NCBI GenBank assembly: GCA_041654095.1
Contig: JBAZED010000001.1
Coordinates: forward strand, 117,632 to 181,631
Direction of reading: 5' to 3'
Source: Bacilli bacterium
Lineage (GTDB): Bacteria > Bacillota_I > Bacilli_A > RFN20 > CAG-826
DNA length: 64,000 nucleotides
The notes beneath the pieces are model-generated. The model saw nothing but the letters and a program-made list of their open reading frames with translations. It was not told where the DNA came from and did no database searches. Position 1 is the first letter of the stretch. Each line of letters opens with the position of its first letter. Of this stretch, positions 1,455-40,112 are shown piece after piece. The translations under genes and the position numbers were made by a program.

Positions 1455-1483
1455 TTGCTACATTCAACCTTTATATATATAAT
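1455..1483 (+). promoter_or_regulatory. sigma-A-like promoter for ftsA-ftsZ
   Basis: TTGCTA - 17 nt - TATAAT, just upstream of the ATG at 1508. Confidence 0.45.
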
Positions 1484-1507: not shown

Positions 1508-2725
1508 ATGGAAAAGCCAATTGCCGCTTTAGAAATATCATCAGCCGAGATTAAGTTAGTCGTCGGCTATGAACTCGATGGGCAGCCCGTTGTGCTTTAC
1601 GCTATGCGTAAGCCCATCGACGCTTTTGTCGAACGCGGTCAAATTGTCAATCTGATCGGCTTGATCGAAGCCCTTAAAGACATCAAGGAAATCAAGGATT
1701 CGACGGCCAAATTGAAACTGACGATTTCCGAAGCTATCTTGTTATTGCCACCTCTCGGACTAGAAGTGTATCAAAGTGACAAAACGACAAATGTCGTCTC
1801 TCCGACCGGAACCGTCGAGGCCATCGATATTTCCAACGTCGTGTCGCTGGTGCGCAAGGAAGTCGTTCCACACGGCGGTCAAATCGTCGATATCATCCCC
1901 GATGCTTTTGAACTCGACAATGGTCGCCAGTTCGCCAATCAACCGATCGGCGAGAAATCCAATTCGCTCTCCATCTCCGCGAAGATTCACGCCTTGCCCT
2001 TTACAGTTGTCGAAAACTTTAGACGGGCTTTTAAAGAAGCTGACATCACGATTAAACGCGTGCTCGTCGGTCCTCATGCGGCGAGCTATCTCTATGCCCA
2101 AGATCCCGGCCTGCCCACTTCATATCTATTCCTTGATATGGGAGCCGAAGTGACGACCATCAGTTTGATCGGCAATGGCGCGCTCTTCGCCTCGATCTAT
2201 TTCGAAAAAGGCGGAAAAGACTTGACCAGCGCGATCGTTCGCGATTTCAATATTCCCTTCGACGAGGCCGAAAAACTGAAGCGCCGCTACGGCATCGACC
2301 ATCGCCTTATGTCCTTTTATCCGACCATCGCCACCAGCGTCGATATGGAAGGGCAAGAACATCAGTATATGATCAGCGATTTGAACCAGATCATTGAAAC
2401 TTTTATCGCCGATTATCTCGTCTCGCTCAAACAGGCGATCAATTCGTTGATGACCGGTTATGATCGCAAGTATTTGCGCATTCCGCTTTTATTAAGCGGC
2501 GGATTGGCGCGCCTCAACGGTTTACCGGAAATGTTGATCGAAGCCTTCCCGGACAATAAAATCCATTTTGCGATTCCGAAAGCTATCGGCGCCCGCCATC
2601 AGACGTACGCCAATGCGCTTGGGGCCATCTTGGCCAATAATCGCTACCATAGTTATCTTGAGGAAGACCGCCCCGTCGTCACGACGTTGACGCGCGGTGG
2701 CAAAGAACCTAAGGAACGGAAATAG
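1508..2725 (+). CDS. ftsA: Cell division protein FtsA
   Basis: Actin-fold ATPase; MEKPIAALEISSAEIKLVVGYE... N-terminus; lies upstream of ftsZ. I prefer the ATG at 1508 over the GTG at 1442 because the promoter lies between them. Confidence 0.88.
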   Translation: MEKPIAALEISSAEIKLVVGYELDGQPVVLYAMRKPIDAFVERGQIVNLIGLIEALKDIKEIKDSTAKLKLTISEAILLLPPLGLEVYQSDKTTNVVSPTGTVEAIDISNVVSLVRKEVVPHGGQIVDIIPDAFELDNGRQFANQPIGEKSNSLSISAKIHALPFTVVENFRRAFKEADITIKRVLVGPHAASYLYAQDPGLPTSYLFLDMGAEVTTISLIGNGALFASIYFEKGGKDLTSAIVRDFNIPFDEAEKLKRRYGIDHRLMSFYPTIATSVDMEGQEHQYMISDLNQIIETFIADYLVSLKQAINSLMTGYDRKYLRIPLLLSGGLARLNGLPEMLIEAFPDNKIHFAIPKAIGARHQTYANALGAILANNRYHSYLEEDRPVVTTLTRGGKEPKERK

Positions 2726-2736
2726 GGGGATATCTT

Positions 2737-3879
2737 ATGCAAGGATCTGATCTAGACAATTTCGAACCGATCGCCCGCATCGTCGTCATCGGCGTCGGCG
2801 GAGCCGGAAATAATGCTGTCAATCGCATGATTGATGAGGATTTAGGAGCCGTCGAATTTTACGTCGCCAATACCGATCGTCAAACGCTGGCGACATCAAA
2901 GTCGCGCAATCGCATCGTCCTCGGACCGTCCGTCACGGGCGGATTAGGCGCTGGCGGAGAGCCGAGCGTCGGTCGCGAAGCGGCCACAGCTTCCATCGAA
3001 GATATCCGCAAAGTCGTCAAAGGGGCCAACATGGTCTTCATCGCCGCCGGCATGGGCGGAGGAACGGGCACAGGAGCGGCTCCGATCGTCGCGCAAGTGG
3101 CACGCGAAGAAGGCGCCTTGACCGTCGCCATCGTCACGCGTCCCTTCACATTCGAAGGCAAGAGGCGCATCGCCAATTCCGTCGAAGGATTAAATGAACT
3201 CAAAGATGCGGTTGACGCCATCATCATCGTGTCCAATGATAAATTGCTGATGGTCAGCGGTACCCAGCCGATTTCCGAAGCTTTTGCCGAGTCGGACCGC
3301 GTCTTGGCGCAGTCGGTCAAGACCGTCACCGATTTGATTTTAATGCCGGCCGTCATCAACCTCGATTTCGCCGATGTCCGCAATACCTTGAAGGATTCCG
3401 GCATATCGCTGATCGGCTTTGGCTTAGGTCAAGGACCTAACAGAGCCCAAGAAGCCGCTCAAAATGCCATTAACTCGCCCCTTTTGGAAGCGAGCATCAA
3501 CGGCGCGAGACGGGCGATTTGCTCCGTCACTTGCGGGCCGAGCGTGAGCTTGTACGAAGCCCAAGAAGCCGTCGATTTGGTCATCGAAGCTGCGGGCAAT
3601 AACATCGACGTCAAATTCGGCGTCGCCATCAACAATCAATTGAGCGATCAGATTCTCGTCAGCGTCATCGCCAGCGATTTCACCGAGGAATTCGATTTCA
3701 CCAGCGTCCCCAACTATTCTCAGCAGCTGCGCTTTCAACGGCCGGATGCTGAAAAGAATAACGACGATGGCGAACCCAAACAAGCCAAAGAAGAAAGGGA
3801 AGAAGAAGTCGAGTCCAACGATCTCTCGAGCGAAGATTCGATCTTGCCGAGCTTCTTAAAAAACAAGCACATTGACTAA
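2737..3879 (+). CDS. ftsZ: Cell division GTPase FtsZ
   Basis: GGGTGTG tubulin signature (VIGVGGAGNNAVNRM, AAGMGGGTGTGAAP); acidic C-terminal tail; RBS GGGGGA. Confidence 0.95.
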   Translation: MQGSDLDNFEPIARIVVIGVGGAGNNAVNRMIDEDLGAVEFYVANTDRQTLATSKSRNRIVLGPSVTGGLGAGGEPSVGREAATASIEDIRKVVKGANMVFIAAGMGGGTGTGAAPIVAQVAREEGALTVAIVTRPFTFEGKRRIANSVEGLNELKDAVDAIIIVSNDKLLMVSGTQPISEAFAESDRVLAQSVKTVTDLILMPAVINLDFADVRNTLKDSGISLIGFGLGQGPNRAQEAAQNAINSPLLEASINGARRAICSVTCGPSVSLYEAQEAVDLVIEAAGNNIDVKFGVAINNQLSDQILVSVIASDFTEEFDFTSVPNYSQQLRFQRPDAEKNNDDGEPKQAKEEREEEVESNDLSSEDSILPSFLKNKHID

Positions 3880-5608
3880 AATTACCAATAGATTAAGTCT
3901 TCGAAAAGCTCTTATTTTTACGTTGGGTTTTTTCGTCCTATTAACATCTTGCGACGGTGGCAATTCGAGCGACACATCGTCATCTTCATCGGGTAATTCG
4001 GCATCGTCTTCCGGTCCGGATATCGAATATCAAGATTACTATAGCGATTATTATGATTCTATTGAATCATGGACAGATGGTGATAATCTTCGCGAACAGC
4101 TGCGAACTCTAGTTAACTACAATGTTAATCTAGTTGACTTTAATGCTAGTTCTAACATTTGGGCCGTCAACCAGCTCGCCGACGAAACCATCGATAATTA
4201 CGATCGCATCGATATCGTCTATGGAAATTATCAGCCTTTAAAAACGTTCACGGCGAGCGGTTCAAACGGCGGCTGGCAGCGCGAACATGCTTTTGCGCAA
4301 TCGCTTGGTGATTTCGATGTAGCGAGCGCCAGCAGAAATGCAAATGAAAGCTTGATCATGAGAAGCGATTTTCATAATCTGTTCGCCTCCGATGGCACTT
4401 TGAATGGTTCCCGAAACAATCTGAATCTCGGCGATGTCACTTCCGAGATGGGAGCGATCAGCAACCCCAAAGATTCGTTTGGAAACGAAACGGAATGCTA
4501 TCGAACCGATTTCGTTTTTGAGCCGCCGGATAAGGATAAACCGATGTTATCTCGCGCCATATTCTATATCGCGACCCGCTTTGCCGATCTCGATGTCGTC
4601 GAAGGAATATCCGCCGTCAGAAGCAAAACCCATGGTATGTTGAGCGACTTGTTGGAATGGTCGGAAAGCCCTGTCACCAGGCGCGAATACAAGCATAATA
4701 TCGGGGTTTATCATTTTCAGAACAATCGGAATCCGTATATCGACTATCCCGAACTCGTCGACTATGTTTTCGGAGATAAAAAAGATGAAGCTGGCGTTTT
4801 AAAAACATTAAGACCATCATATTATGATGTGGTTCTCGCCGGCGGCGAAGAAAACGCTGGCGACACGCATAATTTGACGATAAGAAATGTCAAATCCAAT
4901 TATATGGTAGGCGACCCGTTTTCAAAAGCTGACGATTTAAAAGTCTTTACGGTAGCCAACGATTTAACATTAAGCGATAATTTAGGAATAACCGCTTTTG
5001 AAACGACATATGCTGATTTTTACCATTTTGTTGATGGCGATCTCGGTAAGAAAACGGTATCCGTATCACATCAATCTTTCAATGTCTCTTATGAGATCGA
5101 AATCATCTCAAGCGCATCATCTTTAGCACTCTACAAGTATATATTGACCGCCGACGATGCATTCAAGGACAAAACAGCGCAGAGCACGCCTTATTCGATC
5201 ACTTTAGGCGGTTTGGCTTTTGACTTTTACATGAAGAGCGGATATGCATCGCAATTTCAAGCATCTGCCGGAACCGGTCGGCAGTTCGGAACAAAAGATT
5301 ATCCGATCGACAATATGTATCTCGAGACCAGCTCGCCGTTTAATGTCGATGATAAAACGCGAGTCAATGCCGTTTATATCGTCGCTTCGACGAACAAAAA
5401 CCCAGGGGCATCCCCAGCTATTAATGTGAGCATCGGCGAGTATTCTTTCCCGCAAAGAGCGCTGATCATCGGTCCGAGCGGAACGAATACGCTCTATAGC
5501 TTTGAAGTTCCAGAAGAAGGATCATACGAAGGAAAGGTGCGAATCGCCTTTAGCGGCTTCACCGATGGAGCGTTATATATCAAACAGTTTGCAATCAATG
5601 CCGTTTAG
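3872..5608 (+). CDS. Surface lipoprotein with Endonuclease-I (EndA/Vvn) family nuclease domain
   Basis: Lipobox LLTSC plus Ser-rich linker; motifs WQREHAFAQS and DFHNLFASDGTLNGSRNN match Endonuclease_1 catalytic motifs; its start overlaps the ftsZ stop by 8 nt. Confidence 0.72.
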   Translation: MTKITNRLSLRKALIFTLGFFVLLTSCDGGNSSDTSSSSSGNSASSSGPDIEYQDYYSDYYDSIESWTDGDNLREQLRTLVNYNVNLVDFNASSNIWAVNQLADETIDNYDRIDIVYGNYQPLKTFTASGSNGGWQREHAFAQSLGDFDVASASRNANESLIMRSDFHNLFASDGTLNGSRNNLNLGDVTSEMGAISNPKDSFGNETECYRTDFVFEPPDKDKPMLSRAIFYIATRFADLDVVEGISAVRSKTHGMLSDLLEWSESPVTRREYKHNIGVYHFQNNRNPYIDYPELVDYVFGDKKDEAGVLKTLRPSYYDVVLAGGEENAGDTHNLTIRNVKSNYMVGDPFSKADDLKVFTVANDLTLSDNLGITAFETTYADFYHFVDGDLGKKTVSVSHQSFNVSYEIEIISSASSLALYKYILTADDAFKDKTAQSTPYSITLGGLAFDFYMKSGYASQFQASAGTGRQFGTKDYPIDNMYLETSSPFNVDDKTRVNAVYIVASTNKNPGASPAINVSIGEYSFPQRALIIGPSGTNTLYSFEVPEEGSYEGKVRIAFSGFTDGALYIKQFAINAV

Positions 5609-5624
5609 TGCGTATTATAATATA

Positions 5625-5836
5625 ATAAAGCGTTGACGAAGACACGCCTTTGACGATTTAGCGAGATAACGAGGGTGCGAGGTTATCAAAAGTCGGAGGT
5701 ATCACTTCTGAGCGAGACCTGAAAAGAGTAGGGAATCCGTCCATCCGGCGTTAAGGAAATGAAGGGTCGTGCAGAAGTGCATGAAACTAAGGTGGTACCG
5801 CGCATTTGCGTCCTTAGAGAGGACGCTTTTATTTTG
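5625..5836 (+). promoter_or_regulatory. T-box riboswitch leader of ileS
   Basis: T-box sequence AAACUAAGGUGGUACCGCG at 5784-5803 overlapping the terminator stem gcgtcct/aggacgc (5808-5826) plus UUUUAUUUU; candidate promoter TTGCAA..TATTAT/TATAAT at 5589-5626. Confidence 0.8.
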
Positions 5837-8583: not shown

Positions 8584-8584
<1 letters not shown>

Positions 8585-9231
8585 TGAAATGGAAACCGAT
8601 AGCGTATTTTAAAGGCAAGAGCTTAAAAGAGATAGCTAAGGATTTCTTTTTCTCGTTCTTGTGGCTGCTTGTCGTTATTTTTGTCATTGATCTCGTCACG
8701 AAATGGGTTGTCGTCGCCAATTTGCACGAATATCAAGACGTCGTCGTCATCGACAGCTTCTTCTATCTGCGCCTCTCTTTTAACCAGGGAGCGGCCTTTG
8801 GCCTCGGCGATACCGGCGATGTCGAGTGGCGTATTTTGTTCATCGCCGTCTCGCTCGTCATCGGGACGGGCATGCTCATCTACTACATCAAAAAATATGC
8901 GTCGTTGAATATCATCATGAAAATCGCTCTGATCATGATGATCGCCGGCGCGTATGGCAATCTAATCGATCGCGCCTTCTATTGGCCTTCGACGGTCGGC
9001 TTCAGCGGCGTCATCGACTTCCTGTCGTTTGAATTCTGGGGCCGTCGCTTTGCGACGTTTAACGTCGCGGATATGTCGCTCGTCGTCGGCGTCATCGTCA
9101 TGCTCGCCGCCATTGTCGTCGACGACCTAAGACACGCCAAGAAGAAGAGCAAAGAAGACCTCTCGAGACCAGCGCCGGAATACCTCGCGGAAAAAGAAAT
9201 GAAAAATGGAAGCAAAGACGATCAATCATAA
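8584..9231 (+). CDS. lspA: Lipoprotein signal peptidase II
   Basis: ATG overlaps the ileS TGA; motifs NQGAAFG and FNVADMS; four TM segments; conserved ileS-lspA linkage. Confidence 0.9.
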
Positions 9232-10179: not shown

Positions 10180-12249
10180 CTAGCCGTTGAATTCGACAAG
10201 GCCGAAGACCATGCCCATAAAGCCAGTGCCTGATCCGATGTTGTAGTATACATTCATATAATCGCCGGTAAAATAATTAGCAGGAGCCCCGGGTTCATAT
10301 TTTGTTGCAATAGGAACCCCGCCTACACTAATGAGCCCTTGAGGATTAGGATTCAATAGTGCTGCTGGGCCATCTGACGATTGAAAGCGGGCGTATTCGG
10401 GGCCAAAGCCACTTGCTGAGGTCATAAATGCACCCTTGAAATCAAGAGCCACATTTTCATCGATTTGAATTTTTCCGTTAACCTTAGCAGATGTCGGTTC
10501 CGCGACACCTCCGTCTTTGATGAGACCGATCATGTTGAAATGGGCGATGGGATCAGGCTTTCCGGTGACGGTGATCATCTTCACAATTGATTTTGACCCA
10601 TAATATGGCAACAACTGTGTTCCAAGGGCAACCAACTGCGCGGCAGCACCTGTGGCGCTGACGAGCCTAAACCAGTTCTCGTCACCGGTGACATATGATT
10701 CTAATAATGAATTTTGGACAAGCGTTTGAGGTTGGTATCCGCCCTCTCCTGTCACTTCATCTGCATAGACGTGATCAGAGATGAGAACCGGACCACCTGC
10801 GCCGATAAATTCACAATCCTTAATGAGCAAGTTGGTAGTACCAAAGTTGTAAAGCATGCTGCTGAACGAGTCGTAACCGCGCGTTTTTTCGATCGTGGCA
10901 TTCGGACCGGAGAATTCAGTCAGGAAAATGGTGAAGCACTGTGTGGCGATGACATTATAAACAAGGGAGTCGACACTCAACGTCTTCGAAAAGATGGCAC
11001 CTCCTGATTTCACAGCTTCTTCGGTGCGGTTGGCATTGCCGACGACCGAGAGATTTTTCAGCTCGTAATCGCCTAAATCGTCACCGGTTTGGGCATTGCC
11101 AGCCTTGATGACTGTAGCGTGCGAAATGACTTTTCCCTCTTCTGTAGGACTCTCGACAGAATCCTTAGCTTCGCGAACGACAACAGGTAGCGATGAATAA
11201 TCAAGGTTGAAGTAATTGCCATTGATTACAAAATCTTCGCTAGGAAGAATATCTCGGTAATATACGCCGACGTCATCGCGTAGCGAACCGATGATGCGCG
11301 GGTAGTCGGCACCGTCAGTTGGGGCATCGCTGTCGCCTTCCATGTAGAAGAAACCATCCGGCAATTTGTCGCGTTCGATTTTGATGTCATTGTGGAAGAA
11401 GAGGCCGTCGATGTCGACTTGAGTAATGCCTTTGGCTGTGCGATAGCTATTCCATATATTGACATTGATGTTATCGAAATGGGACAAGTCATCTTGCTTG
11501 TAGACGTTATATCCATTCGCAATCGTAAATATAAAAGAAGTCTCAAATTTGGGTGCCGTTGCGTATTCATCGCCGGCCGGCCGGACGCTCAAACTGTAAG
11601 TCTTGCCGATCGCTGCTTCGGCGAAGTCGTAACTCGATGCGAATTCGTCGATGGCGACGGCAGCGTCGAGTTCAGCACCGGTCAAAGTGACCCATTCGTC
11701 CCCGCGTTTTTCCTTGACGACAGAACTGCTGTGATAAGCGGTGACATTCATCTCCTCACCTTCGGAGTCATAAGCGTAGATAGTCGGGAAGAAGATGAAG
11801 GGATTATCGTCGCCGACGAAGTAGCCTTGTTTGAGATCCTTAAACTCATTGCGCTTGTTCTCGGCACTTTTAGTGGCGATATTGGCTGTGTAGTTGGTGA
11901 CGAACTCAGGCGCGCCGATATTGGTGATCTCATCATATTGGACTATGGTGTAAGTCCAGACGATGCTCTCCGTCTCATAGGCGACGGTGATATCAAATTC
12001 GCCCAATTCGGAAGTATTGAGGGTAGTCGGCGTAAAAGTCAAATTCGCACCATTAATCGTTATCGTCTTATTCTCAAAAGTCGCGGTGACGCTGACTTCA
12101 TTGAGGTCGACGACGGTGTATTGAACGTATTCTTCTTGAAGTCCAGAGGCGACTTCGATGTCGAGCAAGTCGCCATATTCCTCGACGACCGGATCACATC
12201 CGGCGAGAGACATCATAACGAGCGGTAGAAATAGTAAACTCTTTTTCAT
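10180..12249 (-). CDS. Large surface lipoprotein (689 aa); possible Ig-like N-domain plus beta-helix-like body
   Basis: Lipobox LAGC|D; Asn/Thr/Gly-rich with repetitive beta-strand-like segments; last gene of the minus-strand ABC cluster; fold assignment is inference. Confidence 0.65.
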   Translation of the reverse strand: MKKSLLFLPLVMMSLAGCDPVVEEYGDLLDIEVASGLQEEYVQYTVVDLNEVSVTATFENKTITINGANLTFTPTTLNTSELGEFDITVAYETESIVWTYTIVQYDEITNIGAPEFVTNYTANIATKSAENKRNEFKDLKQGYFVGDDNPFIFFPTIYAYDSEGEEMNVTAYHSSSVVKEKRGDEWVTLTGAELDAAVAIDEFASSYDFAEAAIGKTYSLSVRPAGDEYATAPKFETSFIFTIANGYNVYKQDDLSHFDNINVNIWNSYRTAKGITQVDIDGLFFHNDIKIERDKLPDGFFYMEGDSDAPTDGADYPRIIGSLRDDVGVYYRDILPSEDFVINGNYFNLDYSSLPVVVREAKDSVESPTEEGKVISHATVIKAGNAQTGDDLGDYELKNLSVVGNANRTEEAVKSGGAIFSKTLSVDSLVYNVIATQCFTIFLTEFSGPNATIEKTRGYDSFSSMLYNFGTTNLLIKDCEFIGAGGPVLISDHVYADEVTGEGGYQPQTLVQNSLLESYVTGDENWFRLVSATGAAAQLVALGTQLLPYYGSKSIVKMITVTGKPDPIAHFNMIGLIKDGGVAEPTSAKVNGKIQIDENVALDFKGAFMTSASGFGPEYARFQSSDGPAALLNPNPQGLISVGGVPIATKYEPGAPANYFTGDYMNVYYNIGSGTGFMGMVFGLVEFNG

Positions 12250-12340
12250 GGTTTTTATCCTTTCGCGATAATTTTCCCCGTGAATATTTCAGTGCTTTGA
12301 AACGCACCGGAAATCATTGTATCACTTTGCAAAACAAAGA

Positions 12341-12802
12341 TTAAGCATCTGGCGTTTTGGCCAGAAGGCGGACGCGCGCCGAGGCGTTCGAATTGTCATT
12401 GGCCCGAATCGTGAAAGTCTCCGTGCCTTCGTCGAGAAAAGTCGCCCGCCCGGTCTCTGCGTCAACACGAGCGATGAGGCTATTCGGATCAGTATAAAAA
12501 ATGACGCTTTGATTCGTGGTATTAAAAGGGAGAATCTCATAGATGATATCAACTGTCAGATCGACGACGTAAGCCAAAGTCAGCGTCGATCCTTCTTTTT
12601 CGGGATTTTTAATCTTATAGACATTAATGTCTTCGTCATAGTAGGTATCGTATAAATCATCGCCGATGCGAATGCCGGTGCACACGATTTCATGCGCGTA
12701 AATCGTGACATTATAAACTTCCGCACGCTTAAAGATGAGGCCGATGAGGATGATGGCGATCAAGGATAGCGAACTAATGATGAGAATGACTGATTTTTTC
12801 AT
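12341..12802 (-). CDS. N-terminally anchored small surface protein with Ig-like (Big_2-like) domain, 153 aa
   Basis: N-terminal TM/signal anchor (ILIISSLSLIAIILIGLIF) followed by a ~120-aa beta-rich domain; 2-nt gap to the upstream permease gene. Confidence 0.5.
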   Translation of the reverse strand: MKKSVILIISSLSLIAIILIGLIFKRAEVYNVTIYAHEIVCTGIRIGDDLYDTYYDEDINVYKIKNPEKEGSTLTLAYVVDLTVDIIYEILPFNTTNQSVIFYTDPNSLIARVDAETGRATFLDEGTETFTIRANDNSNASARVRLLAKTPDA

Positions 12803-12804
12803 TG

Positions 12805-14481
12805 TTAGTTTATCCGATCATAATAATACGCTTTTATTTTTTCGACGAAAAAGTAGATGGCCGCCCCGAAGAAGACCACGCCGATCAAGAGCAATTTCAA
12901 GAAGGCGAGGCTGAAACTCGTCTCAGGTATAAACTGTTCTTCGTTAAGAAAAGCAAAAGTGATAAAAGCGAATAAAAAAGCGGTCGCAAAGGCAAAGATC
13001 GTCGCTTTCGTCTCGTTGGGATTGTTAATTTGCTCGCCGACGGTCGCGTATTGCTCGTTCTGCGGATTCATCAAATCCATGAGGGCGCAGAAGAGGAGAT
13101 GGCCGACTTGAATGAAGGCCAAAGCAAAGCACAACAGAATAATATTGATGTGAATATAATGGACGTGCATGTTGAAAATTAAGAGCGAAACAGATAAGGA
13201 AGCAACCGATAAAACGATGTTTGGCAATAATTTGGCGATGAGCGGGAAGATGATTTTAACGGGTTTCGTCCGCTTCATGTAAGCGGTGCGCCCTTCCCTA
13301 GAATAGAGCGTGGCGATATAGCTATTTGAAGCCATGAGGGGCAACATGATAATCAAGACATTGAAGGCTTGGACCATGAATTCACCAACGAGGTACAAAT
13401 CCATGGAAGCAAAAATCCGGTTGATGAGCAAGACGACCAAAGGGATAGCGATGTAGGTGGCGATAAAATTGTAGGTGAATTCGCCGGAGCGGAAGAGCAG
13501 CTTTAACTCCTTGAGAGTAAAAGAGATGAAAGGCGGTAAGCGGCGGTTCATAAGCGCCTTGACTTTAAATTTCTTCTCATATTCGAAACTGGCAGCCGTC
13601 ATCTTGATGAAGATGAGGCGCGATAAGAAGTAGATGGACATAAAGAGGGTCGCCAAAATGCCGATGAGGCTGAAGAAGATGAGCCAGACATCGAGGTTGG
13701 CGTATGAGTAGCGCATCGCCGCATCATATTTTCCGACGACCATGACGACGACGTAATAGATGGGGGAGAAGACCTCTTGAAAAAACATCGTCACGTCCGA
13801 GAGCATTATTTTGAGCGGAACCCAGTAAAGGAGGACATTTATTTCGTTAGGTATCAATAAAATCAAGCGGGCGAGCAGGTAGACGCAACCCGCCAAAACA
13901 GCGATGAAAACGGCGATTTTGACGATGCGGTGGCGGTTTAAAAAGCGGAAAATAAAGAGCCCGGGAACGGATAGGACGACGCCGATGACGACCGGGATCA
14001 TCGAGACGAAGAAAAAGGCGATGAAGACCCAGATGTAGAAAAACCAGTTGACCGGAGACATCACGCCATAAGCGATGAAGATGGGCAGAGTAAAAGTCAC
14101 GTTCTTGTAAATTTCGTAGATGTAAAAGACGATGATTTTCGATAAGAAGATGCGGTTGGCGGAGATGGGATAAGTCACCAGGACTTGATTGTCTTCGGCC
14201 ATGTAGAGCGACTTGATGAGCTCCAGCGTGCAAGTGACGATTGAAATACCGAGTATGATCGTCATCAGCATCGTCATGACCGAGGTGGGAATGAAAGGAG
14301 AATTGTGGAAGATCTTCAAAAATGAAGAGAGGAATAAGATGCCAAACGCGATGGCAAAGACGAGCAGAAACCGCAAGATGAAAAAGACGATTTTGCGAAT
14401 TAGCTGCGGCCGATCTCTGATAAACCCTAAGTCGAGTTTATCCTTGAGCTGCATTATGACAAGCGTTTTGATATCTTTCAT
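12805..14481 (-). CDS. Polytopic membrane protein, probable ABC-2-type exporter permease (558 aa)
   Basis: At least 10 hydrophobic helices; lies immediately downstream (4 nt) of an ABC ATPase gene; no recognisable enzymatic motif. Confidence 0.65.
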   Translation of the reverse strand: MKDIKTLVIMQLKDKLDLGFIRDRPQLIRKIVFFILRFLLVFAIAFGILFLSSFLKIFHNSPFIPTSVMTMLMTIILGISIVTCTLELIKSLYMAEDNQVLVTYPISANRIFLSKIIVFYIYEIYKNVTFTLPIFIAYGVMSPVNWFFYIWVFIAFFFVSMIPVVIGVVLSVPGLFIFRFLNRHRIVKIAVFIAVLAGCVYLLARLILLIPNEINVLLYWVPLKIMLSDVTMFFQEVFSPIYYVVVMVVGKYDAAMRYSYANLDVWLIFFSLIGILATLFMSIYFLSRLIFIKMTAASFEYEKKFKVKALMNRRLPPFISFTLKELKLLFRSGEFTYNFIATYIAIPLVVLLINRIFASMDLYLVGEFMVQAFNVLIIMLPLMASNSYIATLYSREGRTAYMKRTKPVKIIFPLIAKLLPNIVLSVASLSVSLLIFNMHVHYIHINIILLCFALAFIQVGHLLFCALMDLMNPQNEQYATVGEQINNPNETKATIFAFATAFLFAFITFAFLNEEQFIPETSFSLAFLKLLLIGVVFFGAAIYFFVEKIKAYYYDRIN

Positions 14482-14485
14482 CGCT

Positions 14486-16705
14486 TTAGCCTTGCTTTGA
14501 TTCCTCGTTTACACTCGGAGTTGGTTCATCGTCGATAACGGCCGTCATCAAATAGTATTCCTCGAGCGTTCCTTGCTTGTGAACATCGTCAATCGTCATC
14601 GGTTCGTGGAGATGGCCTTTTTTAATGACGGCGATGCGCTGGCAGAGATTTTCGACGACATCGATGATGTGGCTCGAGAACATGACGATGTTGCCTTTGG
14701 CGGCGTGTTGCCGCATGCACTCTTTGACTTGGTAGATGCTGTCGGGGTCAAGGCCGGTCAGAGGTTCGTCGAGCAACCAGAGTTTGGGCTCGTGGATTAA
14801 CGCGGCGATGATTGTGACTTTCTGCTTCATGCCGTGCGAAAAAGTCTTGATTTGGCTGTCGAAAGAGTCTTCGAGATGGAAGAGGCTGACATAGTAGGGA
14901 ATCCGCTCTTGCCGCTCGTCATAAGTGACGCCGTAAATGTCGGCGATGTAATTGACGTACTCGCGAGCCGTCAACTTTTCGTACAAGGCATAGTGGTCGG
15001 GGACATAACCGATGAGGCGCTTGGCCATAACGGGTTGTTTTTCGACGTCATAACCGCAGATCGAGATCGAACCTTCGGTGATCGTCTGAATGCCGACGAT
15101 CGATTTGATGGTCGTCGACTTGCCGGCGCCGTTGGGTCCGAGGAAGCCGAAGATCTCTCCGCCGAAGACATTCAACGAAATATCCTTGACGGCGAAATCC
15201 TTGTTTTTTCCGTAGCGTTTGGAGAAGTTTTTCAGCTCCAACTTCACTCCTGTATTCAGTTCCATGGGTTCTTCGAGCCCCCTTCCGTTTAACGATGCTA
15301 ATAAAGCTATTTGATCGAGGCGCATTTTCTTTTGGCGAACGCGGAGGTCACCGAGCGAATCAGCTATGCTGAAACCGACGCTGTAGACGAACCACATCGC
15401 AAAGGAAACGCCGACGTAGACGAGTAAGAAGAGCGCTTGGTAGACCGGGTGAAAAGTAAATGATAAATCGCCGATCATAAAGCTGGAGGAGATGTTGAAG
15501 ATACTCTCGGCCCAGACCCCTAATTTGTCGACGATGAAGTCGCTGTTGATAAAGAAGAAGTCGACGGTCGCGTAATTGCTGAACCAGACATTGAGAATCA
15601 TAACCAATATAAAATAAGCCGAAAAGGCGATGAGCGAATAGTACATCTGCTTCATCTTCGGACGTGGGAATAAGCGTAAAGCGACAAGGAGCAAGGGCAT
15701 GAAAAAGGCCAGGGCGTGGTTGTACCAGAATTGGATGATGACCCAACTCGTCAAGTTCGTGGTTTCCGCATAGTTGGGCATCAGCATCGCCATCAGCGCA
15801 CCGAAAACGTTGATGAAATAAGTGAAGTAAAACAGCTTATCCAGTTTAAATATCAAGCAGATCGGAATGATGTACATGGCGGTATTGCAGAGGTGGATGG
15901 GCCATGTCCACGGCTCCAGGAAATTCCCATAGTAGAAAACGCGCGAAAAGGTGATCATCGTCGCGACGCTCAGATAGACCATGGCAAAGCGGATGATTTC
16001 ATCGTCCTTTTTCTTCAGCGCGAAATAGATGATGAAAGGGATGGTGATCGTCGCGTAGATGAAGAGGCGGTGGACGAAGGAGATATCGATTACTTCATAG
16101 CGGGCGTTCGCGCTTCCGAACATAATCTGCGGGCCGTAGATGGGAAGGCTGGCGAGAAAGATGGGGATGATTGCCAAGAGCAAATTGATGATCTCTGCCT
16201 TAGGCAGTTTGAAGGAGGCGTCCTCGCGCCAGACGATGAACAAACCATAGGCGATCAATCCGCTTTCGAGGGCGAACATAATCGTCGGAAGCGATAAGCC
16301 GAGAGTTCCGGCCGCGTTTCCGATTAGTTGCAGATAGACGCTGTAATATGAAAATCCAAGATAGAAAAGAAATCCGGGCGTGAAGACGAACTTGATGAGG
16401 TTAGCGAGCGTCTTGACTTTGAAAAAAGGATAGAGCATGAGCAAGACGGCTAAAGCAAGTTCAATCCAGATTCCGAAATATGCAAAGAAAGTGAGGGCCG
16501 GAGCAAAAGGGCCTCCAGCTAGGCTGATGATGCTGACAGCCTGATCGGAATACGAAAAATAGCGAACGGCGAAGACGGCAGCTAAAATGATCGCATAAAT
16601 TTTCGCGTATCTTTTCGTCTTGCGTGCGCGCGTTAACCAAAAAGTCAACAAAGCCCCGATGAGGGCTGCGCCAAGGGCGATGAGATGCGACAGGTAATGT
16701 GTCAA
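14486..16705 (-). CDS. ABC transporter ATP-binding protein fused to a large N-terminal polytopic membrane domain (739 aa)
   Basis: C-terminal ~250 aa carry Walker A GPNGAGKST, signature SHGMKQK, Walker B LWLLDEPLTGLD and an H-loop; N-terminal ~470 aa are membrane-embedded with a WPIHLCN motif reminiscent of the YwaF/TIGR02206 (TMEM164-like) family; TTG start with AGGA RBS. Confidence 0.85.
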   Translation of the reverse strand: MTHYLSHLIALGAALIGALLTFWLTRARKTKRYAKIYAIILAAVFAVRYFSYSDQAVSIISLAGGPFAPALTFFAYFGIWIELALAVLLMLYPFFKVKTLANLIKFVFTPGFLFYLGFSYYSVYLQLIGNAAGTLGLSLPTIMFALESGLIAYGLFIVWREDASFKLPKAEIINLLLAIIPIFLASLPIYGPQIMFGSANARYEVIDISFVHRLFIYATITIPFIIYFALKKKDDEIIRFAMVYLSVATMITFSRVFYYGNFLEPWTWPIHLCNTAMYIIPICLIFKLDKLFYFTYFINVFGALMAMLMPNYAETTNLTSWVIIQFWYNHALAFFMPLLLVALRLFPRPKMKQMYYSLIAFSAYFILVMILNVWFSNYATVDFFFINSDFIVDKLGVWAESIFNISSSFMIGDLSFTFHPVYQALFLLVYVGVSFAMWFVYSVGFSIADSLGDLRVRQKKMRLDQIALLASLNGRGLEEPMELNTGVKLELKNFSKRYGKNKDFAVKDISLNVFGGEIFGFLGPNGAGKSTTIKSIVGIQTITEGSISICGYDVEKQPVMAKRLIGYVPDHYALYEKLTAREYVNYIADIYGVTYDERQERIPYYVSLFHLEDSFDSQIKTFSHGMKQKVTIIAALIHEPKLWLLDEPLTGLDPDSIYQVKECMRQHAAKGNIVMFSSHIIDVVENLCQRIAVIKKGHLHEPMTIDDVHKQGTLEEYYLMTAVIDDEPTPSVNEESKQG

Positions 16706-16764
16706 TTTTTGTTCCTGATGAGATAAGTGACGGGCAAATAATGGGTCGGTCCGTATTCGGTAGC

Positions 16765-16793
16765 ATTATAGCACCGGAGGACCATTTTGTTAA
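16765..16793 (-). promoter_or_regulatory. sigma-A-like promoter of the ABC cluster
   Basis: On the minus strand TTAACA - 17 nt - TATAAT, about 55 nt upstream of the TTG start. Confidence 0.5.
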
Positions 16794-16796
16794 ATA

Positions 16797-16820
16797 TCAT
16801 AAAATGGATTTATAATCCAT
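16797..16820 (-). terminator. weak terminator hairpin after the MBL lipoprotein gene
   Basis: Palindrome ATGGATT-tat-AATCCAT spanning the stop codon, followed on the minus strand by a U-rich tract (UUUAUGAUAUUU). Confidence 0.35.
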
Positions 16821-18138
16821 GGCAGACCTGACCCCACGATGTGCTTTGAATATCGCTATATCGATCGGTCGTCGATCCGTAATTATTGGTTATGCTACCG
16901 CGATATGAAGTGCCTTCATAATTCGTCCGAAGCGGCGAGCCTTCCATATAGACTTTGCTGAGTCCGTCGGTCACGAAAGAAGTCGTCCCATTCACGAAAT
17001 TGAGATATATCTTCGGCACGGTGCGCTTGGCTCCTTTAGTTAAATATCGGTCGAGAGTTTGATAGTGCGGGTGACCGGCGCACACGCCGGTACTCCCCCC
17101 ATATGAAGTGTCGGCGAAAGGAGCGCCGGCCGAGATGGTTACGAGTTTCGGTTGCAGGACATTGAGCAAGACATTGTTGCTCGCCTTCGACGAGCCGTGA
17201 TGAGGAGCTTTCATCATCGTCACGGTATGGAAGACATCAGTGTTGGTCGCGTTGGTCTGAACCAGGCGCGTTTCACCAGAACCGCCCGTCCCCCCGTAAT
17301 AGCCGCTTGGATTGTCCTGCAAATCGCCCGAGAAGAAATAGGTGAAATTGCGGTATGAGAGAATTCCGGTCACACAAGTGACATTTAAATCATCGACTAC
17401 GGGTCCATCATTGTAATTGGTGGAATAATAGCCCGTATCGAGCCAATCGATGAAGACTTCGGAAGTGACATAAGTGCGTTTCATTCCGCCGTTTGTTCCA
17501 TTGACCATATCGTAAATGCGGTGATATTCGCTGTCTTGACCAACATAATAGTCGCGAATATTGGTGCGATAATTTTCTCCGCCATATTCGTAATAACCAT
17601 AATCGACGATCATGTCGATTGAAGAAACGGCCGCGCGCAGCGCCAAATACCCCCCATAGTGATCGCTATGAGGATGTGTCAAAATCAAGAGATCTAAGTG
17701 TCCATCATCGAGATAGGCATCATACGTGTTTTTTAATAGGTTGTAATAGGTCGATGAATCGCTAAAGGAAGAAGATGCGTAATTTCCAAAATCCATGACG
17801 ATGGTCGCATCGCCAACTTTGAACAGATATGCATCGCCAACCTCAATCGGTTGCTCGAAAACGACGATTTCCAAATAATCAAACGATGAGTTGGAGAGGG
17901 GGTGAGAGGCGCTTCCTAGGGGCGCTTGCGAATCATAGGTCGCGTTTTGCGCGTCGGTTTTGTCATCCGAACCAATTGCTACGCCGGTGTCAGCCATCGT
18001 CGCGATGCGCTCGGCGTATCCTTGATTCGTTTCGCTGCTCGATGAACCATCGGTGTTCGAACTGCTCGAATTATCGTGCGGGCCGCACGAAGACAAAACG
18101 AGCAGTAAAAGCAAGAGAAACAGCGGTATTCTTTTCAT
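16810..18138 (-). CDS. Surface lipoprotein with ComEC-type metallo-beta-lactamase (MBL) fold domain
   Basis: Lipobox LSSC|G with Ser-rich linker; motifs LILTHPHSDHYGG and APHHGS as in the ComEC/Rec2 C-terminal MBL nuclease domain; start overlaps the rnhC stop (ATGA). Confidence 0.78.
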   Translation of the reverse strand: MKRIPLFLLLLLLVLSSCGPHDNSSSSNTDGSSSSETNQGYAERIATMADTGVAIGSDDKTDAQNATYDSQAPLGSASHPLSNSSFDYLEIVVFEQPIEVGDAYLFKVGDATIVMDFGNYASSSFSDSSTYYNLLKNTYDAYLDDGHLDLLILTHPHSDHYGGYLALRAAVSSIDMIVDYGYYEYGGENYRTNIRDYYVGQDSEYHRIYDMVNGTNGGMKRTYVTSEVFIDWLDTGYYSTNYNDGPVVDDLNVTCVTGILSYRNFTYFFSGDLQDNPSGYYGGTGGSGETRLVQTNATNTDVFHTVTMMKAPHHGSSKASNNVLLNVLQPKLVTISAGAPFADTSYGGSTGVCAGHPHYQTLDRYLTKGAKRTVPKIYLNFVNGTTSFVTDGLSKVYMEGSPLRTNYEGTSYRGSITNNYGSTTDRYSDIQSTSWGQVCHGL

Positions 18139-23426: not shown

Positions 23427-25349
23427 ATGCCAAACAACAAGACGCTCACCAAATTATTATTCACCAGTTTAACGATTGTAGGAATCGTTTCCTTCAGCGT
23501 TCTCTTCAACCCATCGAGCGCGCAAGTCGATGGCGAAGGAAGCGGCGAAGTAAACTGCGAATACTATTTTGCGGAGAGCAATAATTACACATCGATACAC
23601 ACTATCGTCGGTAACCTGAATGATGGTATTACCGGGGTTTCATACAAGACTTGGGGCACGGTTACAAAGTACTACCTCGATTCAAACGGCTATCAGAATT
23701 TCTACATACAAAGCACCGATCAAAACGGCAATTTTGCCGGCATGATGATCTACCGGAGCAGCATCGAAGTGGCGGAGGGAAACGTCTTAACCGTCGAAGG
23801 AATCGCCTCGCTATACAATAATTTGCCGGAATTCGTCAACCCGGCGAGGATCGACGTCGATTATGAAGTCAACTCCTCATCGGTCGAAACCTATGTGACG
23901 GATGAATCGTTTTGGCAAAACGGAACGAACCCTTCCTCGTCGCAATTCATCGAGGGCGAAAGCCTCGGAATCTTGAAAATCGCTTTAAACGACGTTGTTT
24001 TAACGTATAATTCCTCTGGAAATGCGACTGTCGTTTTTGCGGGGATGACGAGCGTTCCGCTCTATTATGGCTATCTATCGCAGACAGCGGCGATCGACAG
24101 CTACCTTTATCCGCTAAGCGGATCGACCGTCGATGTCGTTGGCTATCTTCACTGCTATGCCGACGGATATACCTATATGATGCAGTGTTTGATCCGCGGT
24201 GCCGGTGATGTCATCTCCGAAAGCAGCGGCTCTTCCCTGACGCTCAATTCAACCAATTATTACGAGATTGGTACGTATTCGACAGGAAACTACGCTCGCA
24301 CTAATGTAGGCGGTTTTAATTTCGAGCATTATCGAGTCATAAAGCCAAGTTATGGCAATCCGGAATTCATGATTTTGCTACCTTATTTCAACGCTTACGG
24401 AGACGGAACCGCAGCGGGCGCTTTCTATAATGTGTCGGCGATAAACGACATCGAAAGCATCGCTCTTACTTATCGCACGGAGGCGGATTTCGGAATAAAG
24501 CCAACTTTGTCTTATGGCGAAGATATATCGTGCGGCATCTCGATAGAACTTGACCTATCTACCATTTCAGAGACGGCGACGTTGGAAGTGGCAAATGCGA
24601 ATTTTTTCAAAATCGAGACCACCGGAAGCAAATTGTATCTGGAAAGCATCGAAATCGACTATGCCAACGCCGGTCCGGCTGATGAATTCGCCTTCCTCAG
24701 CGCCGGTCAAAACCTCAATCGAATTAATCCGATTGTCAGCACCGGTTCCCTCTACGACGGAAAAAGTGTCCAAGTTCCTTCTTCAATCGCCAAAACGGGT
24801 AGCTATTACGCCGTCCAAAATACGGCGACTTACACCTATTATTCCTATGATTATATCGCTCTTAATCCGGTTTATGCCGACCAAGCCGCGTATACGGCGC
24901 CTGAAGATGTCGCCGCCTATTTCACGACTTTTGGCACTTGGCCGGCGAACTATGTTAACAAGGCGAATTACAATGCTGCGCACGATCTTTTCGGTGATGA
25001 TACGCGCTGCGTCTCGACTTATTCGTGGGATGGCGGATACGCGGTAGCCGTTCCTTATCAAGTGGGCGGCGGCGATCTCCCTCTTTATCATGAATGTGAC
25101 ATCGCTCTCGACTCCTCTTATTCGGGTACCAACCGAGGGGTGGGGCGCGTCATCTGTTGGGAGTATGGCTTTGATTCTTCAAAGGGAGCTGCGAACTACG
25201 ATTCCGCGCCGGTCTGCATCTACACCGATGATCACTATGCGACCTTCCAAGAATATCTGAATGCCGGCTCGTTCGGGACGCGGTTCAACGCCGAGATGGC
25301 GCGCACCGATCACGTCTGGGGAGCGGCGACGACGCTCCTGCCCTCATAA
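23427..25349 (+). CDS. Secreted/surface 640-aa protein with C-terminal barnase/RNase Sa-family (microbial guanyl-specific RNase) domain
   Basis: N-terminal signal peptide (LLFTSLTIVGIVSFSVLF..SSA|Q) with no lipobox; the C-terminal ~110 aa (nt ~24900-25260) align to barnase/RNase Sa: PANYVNK helix, YHECDI (general-base Glu), NRGVGRVIC (Arg pair), YTDDHYATF (catalytic His). Confidence 0.75.
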   Translation: MPNNKTLTKLLFTSLTIVGIVSFSVLFNPSSAQVDGEGSGEVNCEYYFAESNNYTSIHTIVGNLNDGITGVSYKTWGTVTKYYLDSNGYQNFYIQSTDQNGNFAGMMIYRSSIEVAEGNVLTVEGIASLYNNLPEFVNPARIDVDYEVNSSSVETYVTDESFWQNGTNPSSSQFIEGESLGILKIALNDVVLTYNSSGNATVVFAGMTSVPLYYGYLSQTAAIDSYLYPLSGSTVDVVGYLHCYADGYTYMMQCLIRGAGDVISESSGSSLTLNSTNYYEIGTYSTGNYARTNVGGFNFEHYRVIKPSYGNPEFMILLPYFNAYGDGTAAGAFYNVSAINDIESIALTYRTEADFGIKPTLSYGEDISCGISIELDLSTISETATLEVANANFFKIETTGSKLYLESIEIDYANAGPADEFAFLSAGQNLNRINPIVSTGSLYDGKSVQVPSSIAKTGSYYAVQNTATYTYYSYDYIALNPVYADQAAYTAPEDVAAYFTTFGTWPANYVNKANYNAAHDLFGDDTRCVSTYSWDGGYAVAVPYQVGGGDLPLYHECDIALDSSYSGTNRGVGRVICWEYGFDSSKGAANYDSAPVCIYTDDHYATFQEYLNAGSFGTRFNAEMARTDHVWGAATTLLPS

Positions 25350-34907: not shown

Positions 34908-35597
34908 TTGGTCCGCATCAAAGACTTGCCGGAGTGGGAAAGGCCGCGCGAAAAAGCGCTGATGAATGGTTTTGGAGCGCTCTCCAACGTCGAAGTATTA
35001 GCGATTGTGATCGGCAGTGGTGTCAAGGACTATAGCGCCCTTGACATCGCCTCTTCATTAATCGCCAAAACCAAAGGCCTTCACCAGCTCAAGGAAGCGT
35101 CGTTTGACAAGATTTGCGACGTCTCGGGAATAAGCACGATCATGGCGCTCCGCCTCGGAGCCACTTTTGAACTCCTCCGCCGCGTCGAACAATCGCGATC
35201 GATGGATGGTGAAAGGCGCTTATCCGCACCAGATATATTTAAAAAATATAAAGATGAGATTGGTGATAGTCCTCAGGAGCATTTCATCATCATCTTTTTG
35301 TCGCGGCGCGGGGCGATCATCGGCGAGAATAAGATGTATAAAGGCACCGGCGATACCTTTCCGATTTCGATTCGGGAAATACTATCGGAAGTCCTCGCCA
35401 ATCGCTGCCTTTCCTTCACCATCGTCCATAATCATCCCAGCGGGGACATAAAGCCGAGCGACAATGATTTAATCGCGACGAAAGTGCTCGGCGATGAAGC
35501 GTCACGCCTCAAAATTCTCTTGCGCGACCACGTCATCATCGGCCGCGACGAATACTATTCTTTTGCCGAAAATCACCTCATAGATGAGAGGCGGTGA
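34908..35597 (+). CDS. radC: RadC/UPF0758 JAMM-family protein
   Basis: N-terminal HhH region (IKDLPEWERPREKAL) and C-terminal JAMM motif (HNHPSGD); TTG start. Confidence 0.85.
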   Translation: MVRIKDLPEWERPREKALMNGFGALSNVEVLAIVIGSGVKDYSALDIASSLIAKTKGLHQLKEASFDKICDVSGISTIMALRLGATFELLRRVEQSRSMDGERRLSAPDIFKKYKDEIGDSPQEHFIIIFLSRRGAIIGENKMYKGTGDTFPISIREILSEVLANRCLSFTIVHNHPSGDIKPSDNDLIATKVLGDEASRLKILLRDHVIIGRDEYYSFAENHLIDERR

Positions 35598-35677: not shown

Positions 35678-35781
35678 TTGTCGCCTCACAAGCTACAACC
35701 GCCTAGACAAGGTTCCCAACAAATCGTAACGATTGACCTCGATAGCGAGTCATTAGTGCAAATCAAAAGAGGAGGTAACCA
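35678..35781 (+). promoter_or_regulatory. 5' leader of rplU (possible L21-leader autoregulatory RNA)
   Basis: ~105-nt untranslated leader between the promoter and the GAGGAGG RBS, as found in Firmicutes; structure not verified. Confidence 0.3.
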
Positions 35782-39623: not shown

Positions 39624-40112
39624 ATGAAAAAAATAGTTGTCTTCCTACCGCTTTTATTATTAGCACTCGCAGCGTGCAATCCGGTGACGGACTCCGGTTC
39701 GGGTTCTGGTTCGACATCCGATTCGAGTCCGAGCCTTTCTTCTTCGTCTTCTGAGGAAGTCGAATACACAGAATCGGCATCGTGGCCGGCTTCGGTAATC
39801 AGCACCTTTATCGGCAGTGCATCGACGGCCGTGGCGCCTTCTTTTACATCGCCTAATCCTTTTTATTACGCCGTGTTGACCGATGAAGATGGCTCTTATC
39901 TAGATATCTTGACTGAAATCAATGCGACGCAATCGGGAGATTACTTTGATGTCGAAGTTACTTACAATAGCGCGTTGACATCGGCCGGCTTTACGATTGA
40001 CAGCACTGATTATGCCGATTACGGCTTCTTTGCCTATGACGCATCTGAGACTCTGTTCATTCAATATTTCTGGTGGGATGGTTTCTTCAGCTGGTATATC
40101 TGGTCGGCGTAA
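39624..40112 (+). CDS. Small surface lipoprotein (162 aa)
   Basis: Lipobox LAAC|N and SGSGSGSTSDSS linker; N-terminus paralogous to the lipoprotein at 47819. Confidence 0.7.
   Translation: MKKIVVFLPLLLLALAACNPVTDSGSGSGSTSDSSPSLSSSSSEEVEYTESASWPASVISTFIGSASTAVAPSFTSPNPFYYAVLTDEDGSYLDILTEINATQSGDYFDVEVTYNSALTSAGFTIDSTDYADYGFFAYDASETLFIQYFWWDGFFSWYIWSA

Follow-up and report, generated by a model that had tools for sequence, protein, structure and literature searches.

The locus and the start of the nuclease gene

We analysed a 64,000-nucleotide (nt) stretch of a Bacilli bacterium genome (lineage RFN20; CAG-826; assembly GCA_041654095.1, contig JBAZED010000001.1, positions 117,632 to 181,631), hereafter the window, in which the division gene ftsZ is directly followed by a gene for a predicted surface lipoprotein with an Endonuclease I-type nuclease domain. 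Genes occur in the order mraZ (partial), rsmH, a 60-amino-acid (aa) membrane protein, ftsA, ftsZ, the nuclease, ileS preceded by a T-box leader, lspA and rluD. The nuclease gene is a complete coding sequence (3872..5608, +; 578 aa plus stop) with a TTG start. The ftsZ gene (2737..3879, +) encodes 380 aa with the C-terminus ...DSILPSFLKNKHID*, and its product is 90-91% identical to the FtsZ of two relatives, L001 and L002, which carry PF00091 and PF12327 (L numbers denote metagenomic loci of relatives, P numbers public proteins). The two genes share 8 nt (3872..3879, +): ftsZ ends with AAG CAC ATT GAC TAA and the nuclease begins with TTG ACT AAA ATT. The original prediction had placed the nuclease start 8 nt inside the end of ftsZ, and both the list of open reading frames (ORFs) and the sequence itself give this shared segment.

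Public records already name the nuclease 'endonuclease I' or 'endonuclease'. In the public JGI call (P0001, 561 aa, otherwise an identical protein) it starts 17 codons later, at TTG 3923. We rejected this start: with it the Cys would stand at position 10, the charged n-region would be gone and the lipoprotein rule given below would no longer hold. Position 3872 is the better start because homologues with 57-69% identity align from it, and L001, L002 and L009 share both the TTG and the overlap. Public calls for other homologues look shortened in the same way (P0002, P0010 and P0014) or over-extended into ftsZ (P0011, P0015 and P0017). For annotation, the choice of start is of consequence: a truncated public gene call would conceal the lipoprotein nature of the nuclease.

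Lipoprotein signal and linker

The gene opens with a predicted type II (lipoprotein) signal peptide (3872..3952, +; N-terminus MTKITNRLSLRKALIFTLGFFVLLTSC), made of an n-region with K3, R7, R11 and K12, a hydrophobic core and the lipobox LTSC, which places the lipid-attachment Cys at residue 27 (nt 3950-3952). We used a PROSITE PS51257-type rule, which calls for the pattern [LIVMFWSTAG]2-[LIVMFYSTAGCQ]-[AGS]-C, a Cys at 15-35, no charge in the preceding 6 residues and a Lys or Arg near the N-terminus. The nuclease passes with Cys27, LLTSC and six uncharged residues before it; 21 of 23 homologues pass too, and Cys27 is invariant across all 23 (alignment A1). A Ser/Asp-rich low-complexity linker follows (3953..4036, +; residues 28-55), disordered in the structural model with a predicted local distance difference test (pLDDT) below 50. 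The lipobox and Ser-rich linker read earlier from the sequence both stand.

The lspA gene (8584..9231, +), for signal peptidase II, lies two genes downstream of the nuclease, inside the conserved ileS-lspA-rluD block, and shows 67-72% identity (tblastn) to the PF01252 Peptidase_A8 genes of L001, L002 and L009. LspA is the enzyme expected to process the nuclease lipoprotein. The lgt gene was not found in the scanned part of the window, where no search was aimed at it. Elsewhere in the window, five further ORFs have canonical lipoboxes, four of them with similar Ser-rich linkers.

Nuclease domain and active site

Residues 72-294 (4085..4753, +) form an Endonuclease_1 (PF04231) His-Me finger nuclease domain, matched by Pfam with E 1.4e-25 and 90.9 bits (cut-off 25) over profile positions 4-235 of 235. 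An EndA/Vvn-type catalytic domain had been proposed from two motifs, WQREHAFAQS (residues 135-144) and DFHNLFASDGTLNGSRNN (residues 166-183); both are present as quoted, and the full-length profile match confirms the assignment. A Pfam scan of the protein with E up to 1 found no family besides PF04231, SNase and DNase I-like domains being unmatched. The NCBIfam equivalog for the enterobacterial deoxyribonuclease I gave a weak match only, far under its cut-off; the nuclease is therefore a family member and not an EndA orthologue. Against PDB, single-sequence phmmer reached Vvn marginally (E 0.04), and a profile of the 23 homologues matched Vvn (1ouo/1oup) with E 6.6e-7, aligning residues 150-295 with Vvn 84-206. 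The same profile aligned to E. coli EndA by hhalign with a probability of 96.7% and E 3.8e-10.

Among the 23 nuclease family members of alignment A1, Q136, R137, E138, H139, D166, H168, N169, N178, S180, R181 and N185 are invariant. A second alignment, A3 (12 sequences, MAFFT), included E. coli EndA and domains of Cytobacillus, Flavobacterium, Segatella, Labilibaculum, Arenicella and a Cloacimonadales metagenome-assembled genome (MAG); E138, H139, D166, N178 and R181 are still invariant there, EndA reading 'VEWEH'. Glu138-His139 (codons 4283..4288, +) would be the Glu-His pair holding the general-base His, which we take to correspond to Vvn Glu79-His80. Asn178 (codon 4403..4405, +) would be the Mg2+-binding Asn of the (E/T)xNGxRxN motif; it aligns to Vvn 'EVNGDRSN' and is presumably the counterpart of Vvn Asn127. 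The catalytic His and Asn, whose conservation the earlier proposal had left to be checked, are thus invariant in both alignments. A pairwise hhalign shift of the Glu-His onto EndA 'QFGH' was rejected, the E-H being invariant in the 12-sequence alignment.

E. coli EndA, Vibrio vulnificus Vvn and Vibrio/Aeromonas Dns, enzymes of His-Me finger group 9, have a homologous catalytic domain. They share with the window nuclease the Glu-His general-base pair, the NGxRxN metal-binding Asn, a helical back domain and a C-terminal NRNP motif, and they act outside the cytoplasm without sequence specificity, as the window nuclease should by homology. They differ in that each is a soluble protein of one domain and ~210-235 aa, periplasmic or secreted and held together by disulfides, whereas the window nuclease has 578 aa, a predicted lipid anchor, a Ser-rich tether, immunoglobulin (Ig)-like and carbohydrate-binding module (CBM)-like domains, one mature Cys and an acidic composition. 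The disulfide-stabilised fold, a trait of the Vvn/EndA subgroup and not of the Pfam family, is missing here: the whole protein has two Cys, C27 (the lipid-attachment site) and C209, and the mature part keeps only C209. On its profile matches the nuclease is a member of the Endonuclease I family, in an architecture (lipid anchor, tether, Ig-like, CBM-like) that is itself uncharacterised.

Bacillus subtilis Bsn (YurI) offers a second comparison: like the window nuclease it is a Gram-positive-type Endonuclease_1 protein, exported by a member of the Bacilli and free of Vvn-type disulfides. Bsn is a small secreted single-domain enzyme that is not known to have a lipobox or C-terminal modules, and it is encoded outside the division and cell wall (dcw) region. 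The Endonuclease_1 group holds periplasmic or secreted DNases (EndoI, Dns and Vvn) together with Bsn, which is a Mg2+-activated extracellular RNase (PMC5714182). With an RNase in the family (PMC5714182), the term nuclease is justified and DNase is too narrow; of the 'surface DNase' first proposed, the nuclease family stands and the DNase label is not yet justified. The presence of Bsn in group 9 (PMC5714182) also speaks for a reading in which the window protein would be mainly a surface RNase like Bsn, feeding the cell from extracellular RNA. In A3 the nuclease domain resembles Bacilli members more than E. coli EndA, with which it shares 22% identity, against 32-34% with Cytobacillus L035 and Bacilli L023; its lack of the Vvn/EndA disulfide set, C209 being the sole mature Cys, is shared with Gram-positive members; and wall-less Hujiaoplasma degrades RNA as well as DNA (PMC10470597). 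Against this, sugar specificity is not predictable from sequence in Endonuclease_1, and many members cut both DNA and RNA. We regard a mainly RNase function as unlikely, though deserving serious attention.

The C-terminal module

Behind the Pfam domain lie 284 residues (295-578), fewer than the ~350 first estimated. The description of this part as unassigned holds for Pfam, no family being matched by the C-terminal 284 residues of the window protein; folds, in turn, are now assigned by model. AlphaFold2 (AF2) models predict an Ig-like beta-sandwich domain (4859..5107, +; ~residues 330-412) and a CBM-like beta-jelly-roll domain (5129..5605, +; ~residues 420-578) with a conserved GxxFG motif (G469, F472, G473). 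Modelled with an 18-sequence alignment, residues 305-578 reach a mean pLDDT of 88 and form a smaller and a larger beta-sandwich. Weak Big_3 matches occur in 4 of 18 homologues and none in the window protein. The isoelectric point (pI) of the Ig-like domain is 4.5. Of the features of a CBM, the beta-jelly-roll fold is present, while neither membership of a described CBM or Pfam family nor conserved ligand-binding residues were found.

We built a profile of the module and ran it on 1.84 billion representative proteins. It matched no more than 357 clusters, 59 of them below 1e-30, and nearly every match lay at the very C-terminus of a protein of 550-1100 aa. A Pfam scan of ten divergent or long matches found Endonuclease_1 in six, often with Big_2; the other four, mainly matched through the jelly-roll, are a C10 peptidase, a BACON/DUF5689 protein and two Big_2 surface proteins. 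By this census the complete Ig and jelly-roll module is near nuclease-specific, and the jelly-roll by itself is a module of surface proteins in general. The analysis defines a C-terminal Ig and CBM-like module without a Pfam family of its own, hardly found outside Endonuclease_1 nucleases.

Such a module could make the protein an agent of matrix or biofilm DNA remodelling, or an adhesin or glycan-binding surface protein in which the nuclease is secondary. The best structural matches of the CBM-like fold are binders of anionic or plant glycans, and the same module occurs on non-nuclease surface proteins, as such a role would have it. The catalytic residues are strictly conserved, however, which argues that nuclease activity is under selection. 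The full module is found almost only with Endonuclease_1, and the lack of any CBM family membership by sequence for the C-terminal part also counts against a role of this kind, which we hold to be improbable.

Transcription unit and coupling to ftsZ

Upstream of ftsA, a terminator-like hairpin (1384-1407) precedes a promoter-like site, TTGCTA-17-TATAAT (10/12; 1455..1483, +), which is a consensus match only and the probable start of an ftsA-ftsZ-nuclease transcript. The ftsA gene (1508..2725, +) has its probable ATG start at 1508 (the program ORF begins at GTG 1442), and its product is 82-84% identical (tblastn) to the FtsA of L001 and L002, carrying PF14450. No terminator-like or promoter-like site was found at the ftsZ/nuclease junction. 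RNA folding of this A-rich junction gave no unusual structure (z = -0.01).

Beyond the nuclease stop codon, the first terminator is the T-box terminator hairpin (5808-5826, +), the candidate 3' boundary of the unit. It belongs to the ileS T-box leader (5624..5818, +), matched to RF00230 with 82.7 bits and E 1.6e-18, below the gathering score of 93; the default Rfam gathering threshold misses this leader, which was seen only in an E-value search. A second promoter-like site, TTGCAA-18-TATTAT (5589..5618, +), again a consensus match only, lies at the nuclease stop codon and would serve the ileS leader. The ileS start is probably ATG 5852 (MELKKT...), the program ORF start at 5759 falling inside the T-box leader.

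Transcription of ftsA, ftsZ and the nuclease as one unit is plausible in the window. The original prediction had called co-transcription almost certain; the 8-nt overlap and the junction free of terminator-like or promoter-like sites support it, at this lower strength. The TTG start and the 8-nt overlap, together with the absence of a Shine-Dalgarno sequence, suggest translational coupling. Start/stop overlaps are common in the block: ileS and lspA overlap by 1 nt, and lspA and rluD overlap as well as ftsZ and the nuclease (8 nt). The locus would offer a clean natural case in which a start/stop overlap ties a secreted degradative enzyme to the ftsAZ operon, and the ftsZ-nuclease overlap could serve the study of termination-reinitiation coupling.

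Conservation of the locus in relatives

The order ftsA-ftsZ-nuclease-ileS-lspA-rluD is found in at least 14 metagenomic loci. The part from ftsZ to rluD is seen in L001, L002, L003, L004/L005, L008, L009, L010, L011, L015, L017, L018, L091 and L093, and only in part in L014. Across the syntenic loci FtsZ is 62-91% identical and the nuclease ~28-69%, a low identity relative to FtsZ that is expected of a surface protein. The junction itself varies: the 8-nt overlap with TTG is common to the window, L001, L002 and L009, and other overlaps measure 11 nt in L010, 4 nt (ATGA) in L004 and 1 nt (TAATG) in L011, L017, L018 and L091; L008 has a gap of 4 nt. A Shine-Dalgarno sequence, AAGGAG, lies 8 nt upstream of the TTG in L002, and L010 has GAGGGG. 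In both loci it falls within codons of the conserved FtsZ C-terminal peptide (...SFLK/R...).

Judged by these gene orders, the position behind ftsZ is an inherited trait of the clade, and the tight coupling is a feature of the window's sub-clade that is not universal. A nuclease coupled to division genes had been called unusual: the overlap is real in the window, but the position is kept across the whole clade and a terminator-like hairpin separates the two genes in three deeper lineages. A literature search for an ftsZ-linked nuclease found nothing relevant.

A role in division or daughter-cell separation would account for the place behind ftsZ, for instance if the nuclease cleared extracellular DNA that tethers wall-less daughters. 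That place is kept in at least 14 loci despite divergence of the nuclease to ~28-35% identity, and most loci show a start/stop overlap. Even so, a lipoprotein that is exported has no access to the chromosome or the Z-ring, a terminator-like hairpin insulates the nuclease from ftsZ in three lineages, and paralogues of the same architecture are located elsewhere; one of them, P0082, lies in an unrelated gene context. The order ftsAZ...ileS-lspA-rluD, moreover, is one that we take, after the gene order of B. subtilis, to be ancestral in Firmicutes. Since the whole pheT...mutS2 block is syntenic, the nuclease position could be inherited without a functional link. We give a division role hardly any credence. 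The same very low standing applies to a fuller version, in which coupling to FtsZ would be kept because the nuclease cuts extracellular DNA or nucleoprotein holding daughters together and so replaces cell-separation hydrolases, its Ig and CBM-like module targeting the cell's own surface polymers.

Another paralogue, P0051, occurs in a Bacilli MAG (L006, 488-9644) in a row of genes for an ABC substrate-binding protein, an SNase-domain protein (484 aa), a 376-aa protein, a Big_2 protein (833 aa), the Endonuclease_1 protein and a Metallophos protein (517 aa), which looks like a nucleic-acid scavenging island. This setting bears on a further alternative, that the window protein is a DNA-entry nuclease for natural transformation, cutting or nicking incoming DNA for ComEC uptake; its function would then be like that of Streptococcus pneumoniae EndA or B. 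subtilis NucA, both of other families. The nuclease is predicted to be membrane-anchored and non-specific, as such an enzyme should be, and a wall-less relative switches on com genes in response to nucleic acids (PMC10470597). But com genes are adjacent in 0 of ~14 loci, known Endonuclease I enzymes lower transformation instead of promoting it (PMC5714182), the paralogues sit among degradative enzymes, and a long tether with binding modules suits bulk polymer degradation. We judge DNA entry to be very improbable.

The host lineage

Among genomes, the nearest are MAGs that bear the labels Erysipelotrichia, Bacilli or Erysipelotrichaceae, in some cases plainly wrongly. The dcw cluster of the window consists only of mraZ-rsmH-(60-aa membrane protein)-ftsA-ftsZ, and mur, pbp and ftsW genes are absent there. 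The radC gene (34908-35597) is followed directly by the L21 (rplU) leader (35687-35763), without mreBCD/minCD between them, the place these genes occupy in B. subtilis. Taken together, the small dcw cluster and the absence of mreBCD/minCD suggest a probably wall-less or much reduced, Mollicutes-like Bacilli lineage. Free-living wall-less relatives, Izemoplasma, Xianfuyuplasma and Hujiaoplasma, degrade extracellular DNA and RNA (PMC8289736, PMC8397711, PMC10470597). The Izemoplasma and Hujiaoplasma literature describes extracellular nucleases, and not the Endonuclease_1 family, this architecture or the ftsZ position.

Proposed function

We think it likely that the protein is a surface-anchored nuclease, expressed with the ftsAZ operon, that digests extracellular nucleic acids for nutrient scavenging. 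The sequence shows the gene structure, the family membership, the conserved catalytic residues, the lipobox, the predicted folds and the synteny; from these features we infer co-transcription, translational coupling, lipidation, a substrate and a scavenging role, which would fit together as follows. The gene would be transcribed with ftsA and ftsZ, probably from the ftsA promoter, and ribosomes finishing ftsZ would probably restart at the nuclease TTG; the outcome would be low, growth-linked, constitutive nuclease expression. The type II signal peptide would direct export, Lgt and LspA would lipidate Cys27 and cleave just before it, and the mature nuclease would sit on the outer face of the membrane, held by its flexible Ser-rich tether. 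In the His-Me finger (beta-beta-alpha-metal) domain, His139 would act as general base and Asn178 and Glu138 would hold Mg2+ for backbone cutting of nucleic acids without sequence specificity. The Ig-like and CBM-like modules would act as a spacer, and they would probably also bind a polymer or a surface. Extracellular DNA and/or RNA would be cut to oligonucleotides, which other phosphoesterases and transporters would turn into nucleosides and phosphate for the cell.

Support for a nucleotide-scavenging lifestyle, as suggested in the original prediction, is only indirect: the P0051 paralogue adjoins an SNase nuclease, a Metallophos phosphoesterase and an ABC substrate-binding protein. A parallel exists in the membrane lipoprotein nucleases of Mollicutes (MnuA, Mhp379, MAG_5040 and MG_186), which lie on the surface of wall-less cells, supply nucleotide precursors and belong to SNase/thermonuclease or DNase I-like Exo_endo_phos families. 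The window protein may work alike, yet it matches neither SNase nor Exo_endo_phos in Pfam. To our knowledge, surface lipoprotein nucleases have so far been known mainly as SNase-type and DNase I-type families in mycoplasmas; if scavenging by the window nuclease is true, it would add an Endonuclease I-family enzyme to those of wall-less or reduced Bacilli.

In Flavobacterium, Endonuclease_1 enzymes serve phosphate scavenging (PMC8115612). EndA1 and EndA2 of Flavobacterium johnsoniae (Fjoh_4721/4723) combine fn3, a lamin-tail domain (LTD) and PF04231, are extracellular and are induced by low phosphate (PMC8115612). They resemble the window nuclease as multi-domain surface or extracellular Endonuclease_1 proteins with beta-sandwich accessory domains and a part in phosphorus scavenging. 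They differ in their fn3 and lamin-tail domains, export route, outer-membrane location and Pho regulation, and are unlinked to ftsZ.

Several observations weigh against scavenging by an ftsAZ-coupled enzyme. The nuclease domain has a pI of 4.5 and a net charge of -17, and the whole protein is strongly acidic, which is odd for a nucleic-acid enzyme. A C-terminal module acting as a basic DNA-binding domain was considered and rejected, given its pI of 5.1 and the acidity of the protein as a whole. Nor is the CBM-like domain nucleic-acid specific, since it also occurs on the C10 peptidase and the Big_2 and BACON surface proteins. The catalytic core (residues ~129-190) has low confidence in the AF2 model (pLDDT 45-58), and Foldseek of the full model against PDB returned only CBM-like or multi-domain glycosidase matches, without recovering a nuclease fold, because the core is poorly modelled; family membership therefore rests on sequence profiles. 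As regards expression, no Shine-Dalgarno sequence precedes the TTG in the window, so levels could be very low. Finally, L003, L015 and L093 have 54-88-nt gaps with a hairpin plus T-run between ftsZ and the nuclease, and coupling to ftsZ is therefore not required for function; with these three lineages the link to division looks historical or regulatory, not mechanistic. All 22 homologues checked are likewise acidic, and the acidity may reflect a need for divalent cations or salt.

Scavenging at the cell surface, if correct, would leave current concepts unchanged, the gain being a solid functional annotation and one curious conserved gene position.

Other genes in the window

Between rluD and rnhC/mutS2 the window holds a block (10180-18138) made of a lipoprotein gene, an ABC transporter and a further lipoprotein gene; rluD and rnhC/mutS2 are adjacent in L003, L091 and L093. 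The first gene (10180-12249, -) encodes a 689-aa lipoprotein with an LAGC lipobox and no Pfam match. A gene of similar size (684 aa), also without a Pfam match, takes the same place after rluD in L001 (12353-13767) and L002 (8913-10344). The last gene (16810-18138, -) encodes a 442-aa lipoprotein (MKRIPLFLLLLLLVLSSC, then a Ser-rich linker) with a metallo-beta-lactamase-fold domain (PF00753, E 8.8e-7); lying next to the ABC transporter block, it could be another surface phosphodiesterase or nuclease. Within the same stretch, a 739-aa ORF (14486-16705, -) joins a TMEM164-family membrane region (PF14808, E 6.7e-18) to a C-terminal ABC ATPase, an unusual fusion.

Three small lipoproteins with canonical lipoboxes and no Pfam match are encoded at 39624-40112, 46313-46900 and 46971-47819 (-), two of the three with Ser-rich linkers. 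A 640-aa ORF (23427-25349), likewise without a Pfam match, has a hydrophobic, signal-peptide-like N-terminus.

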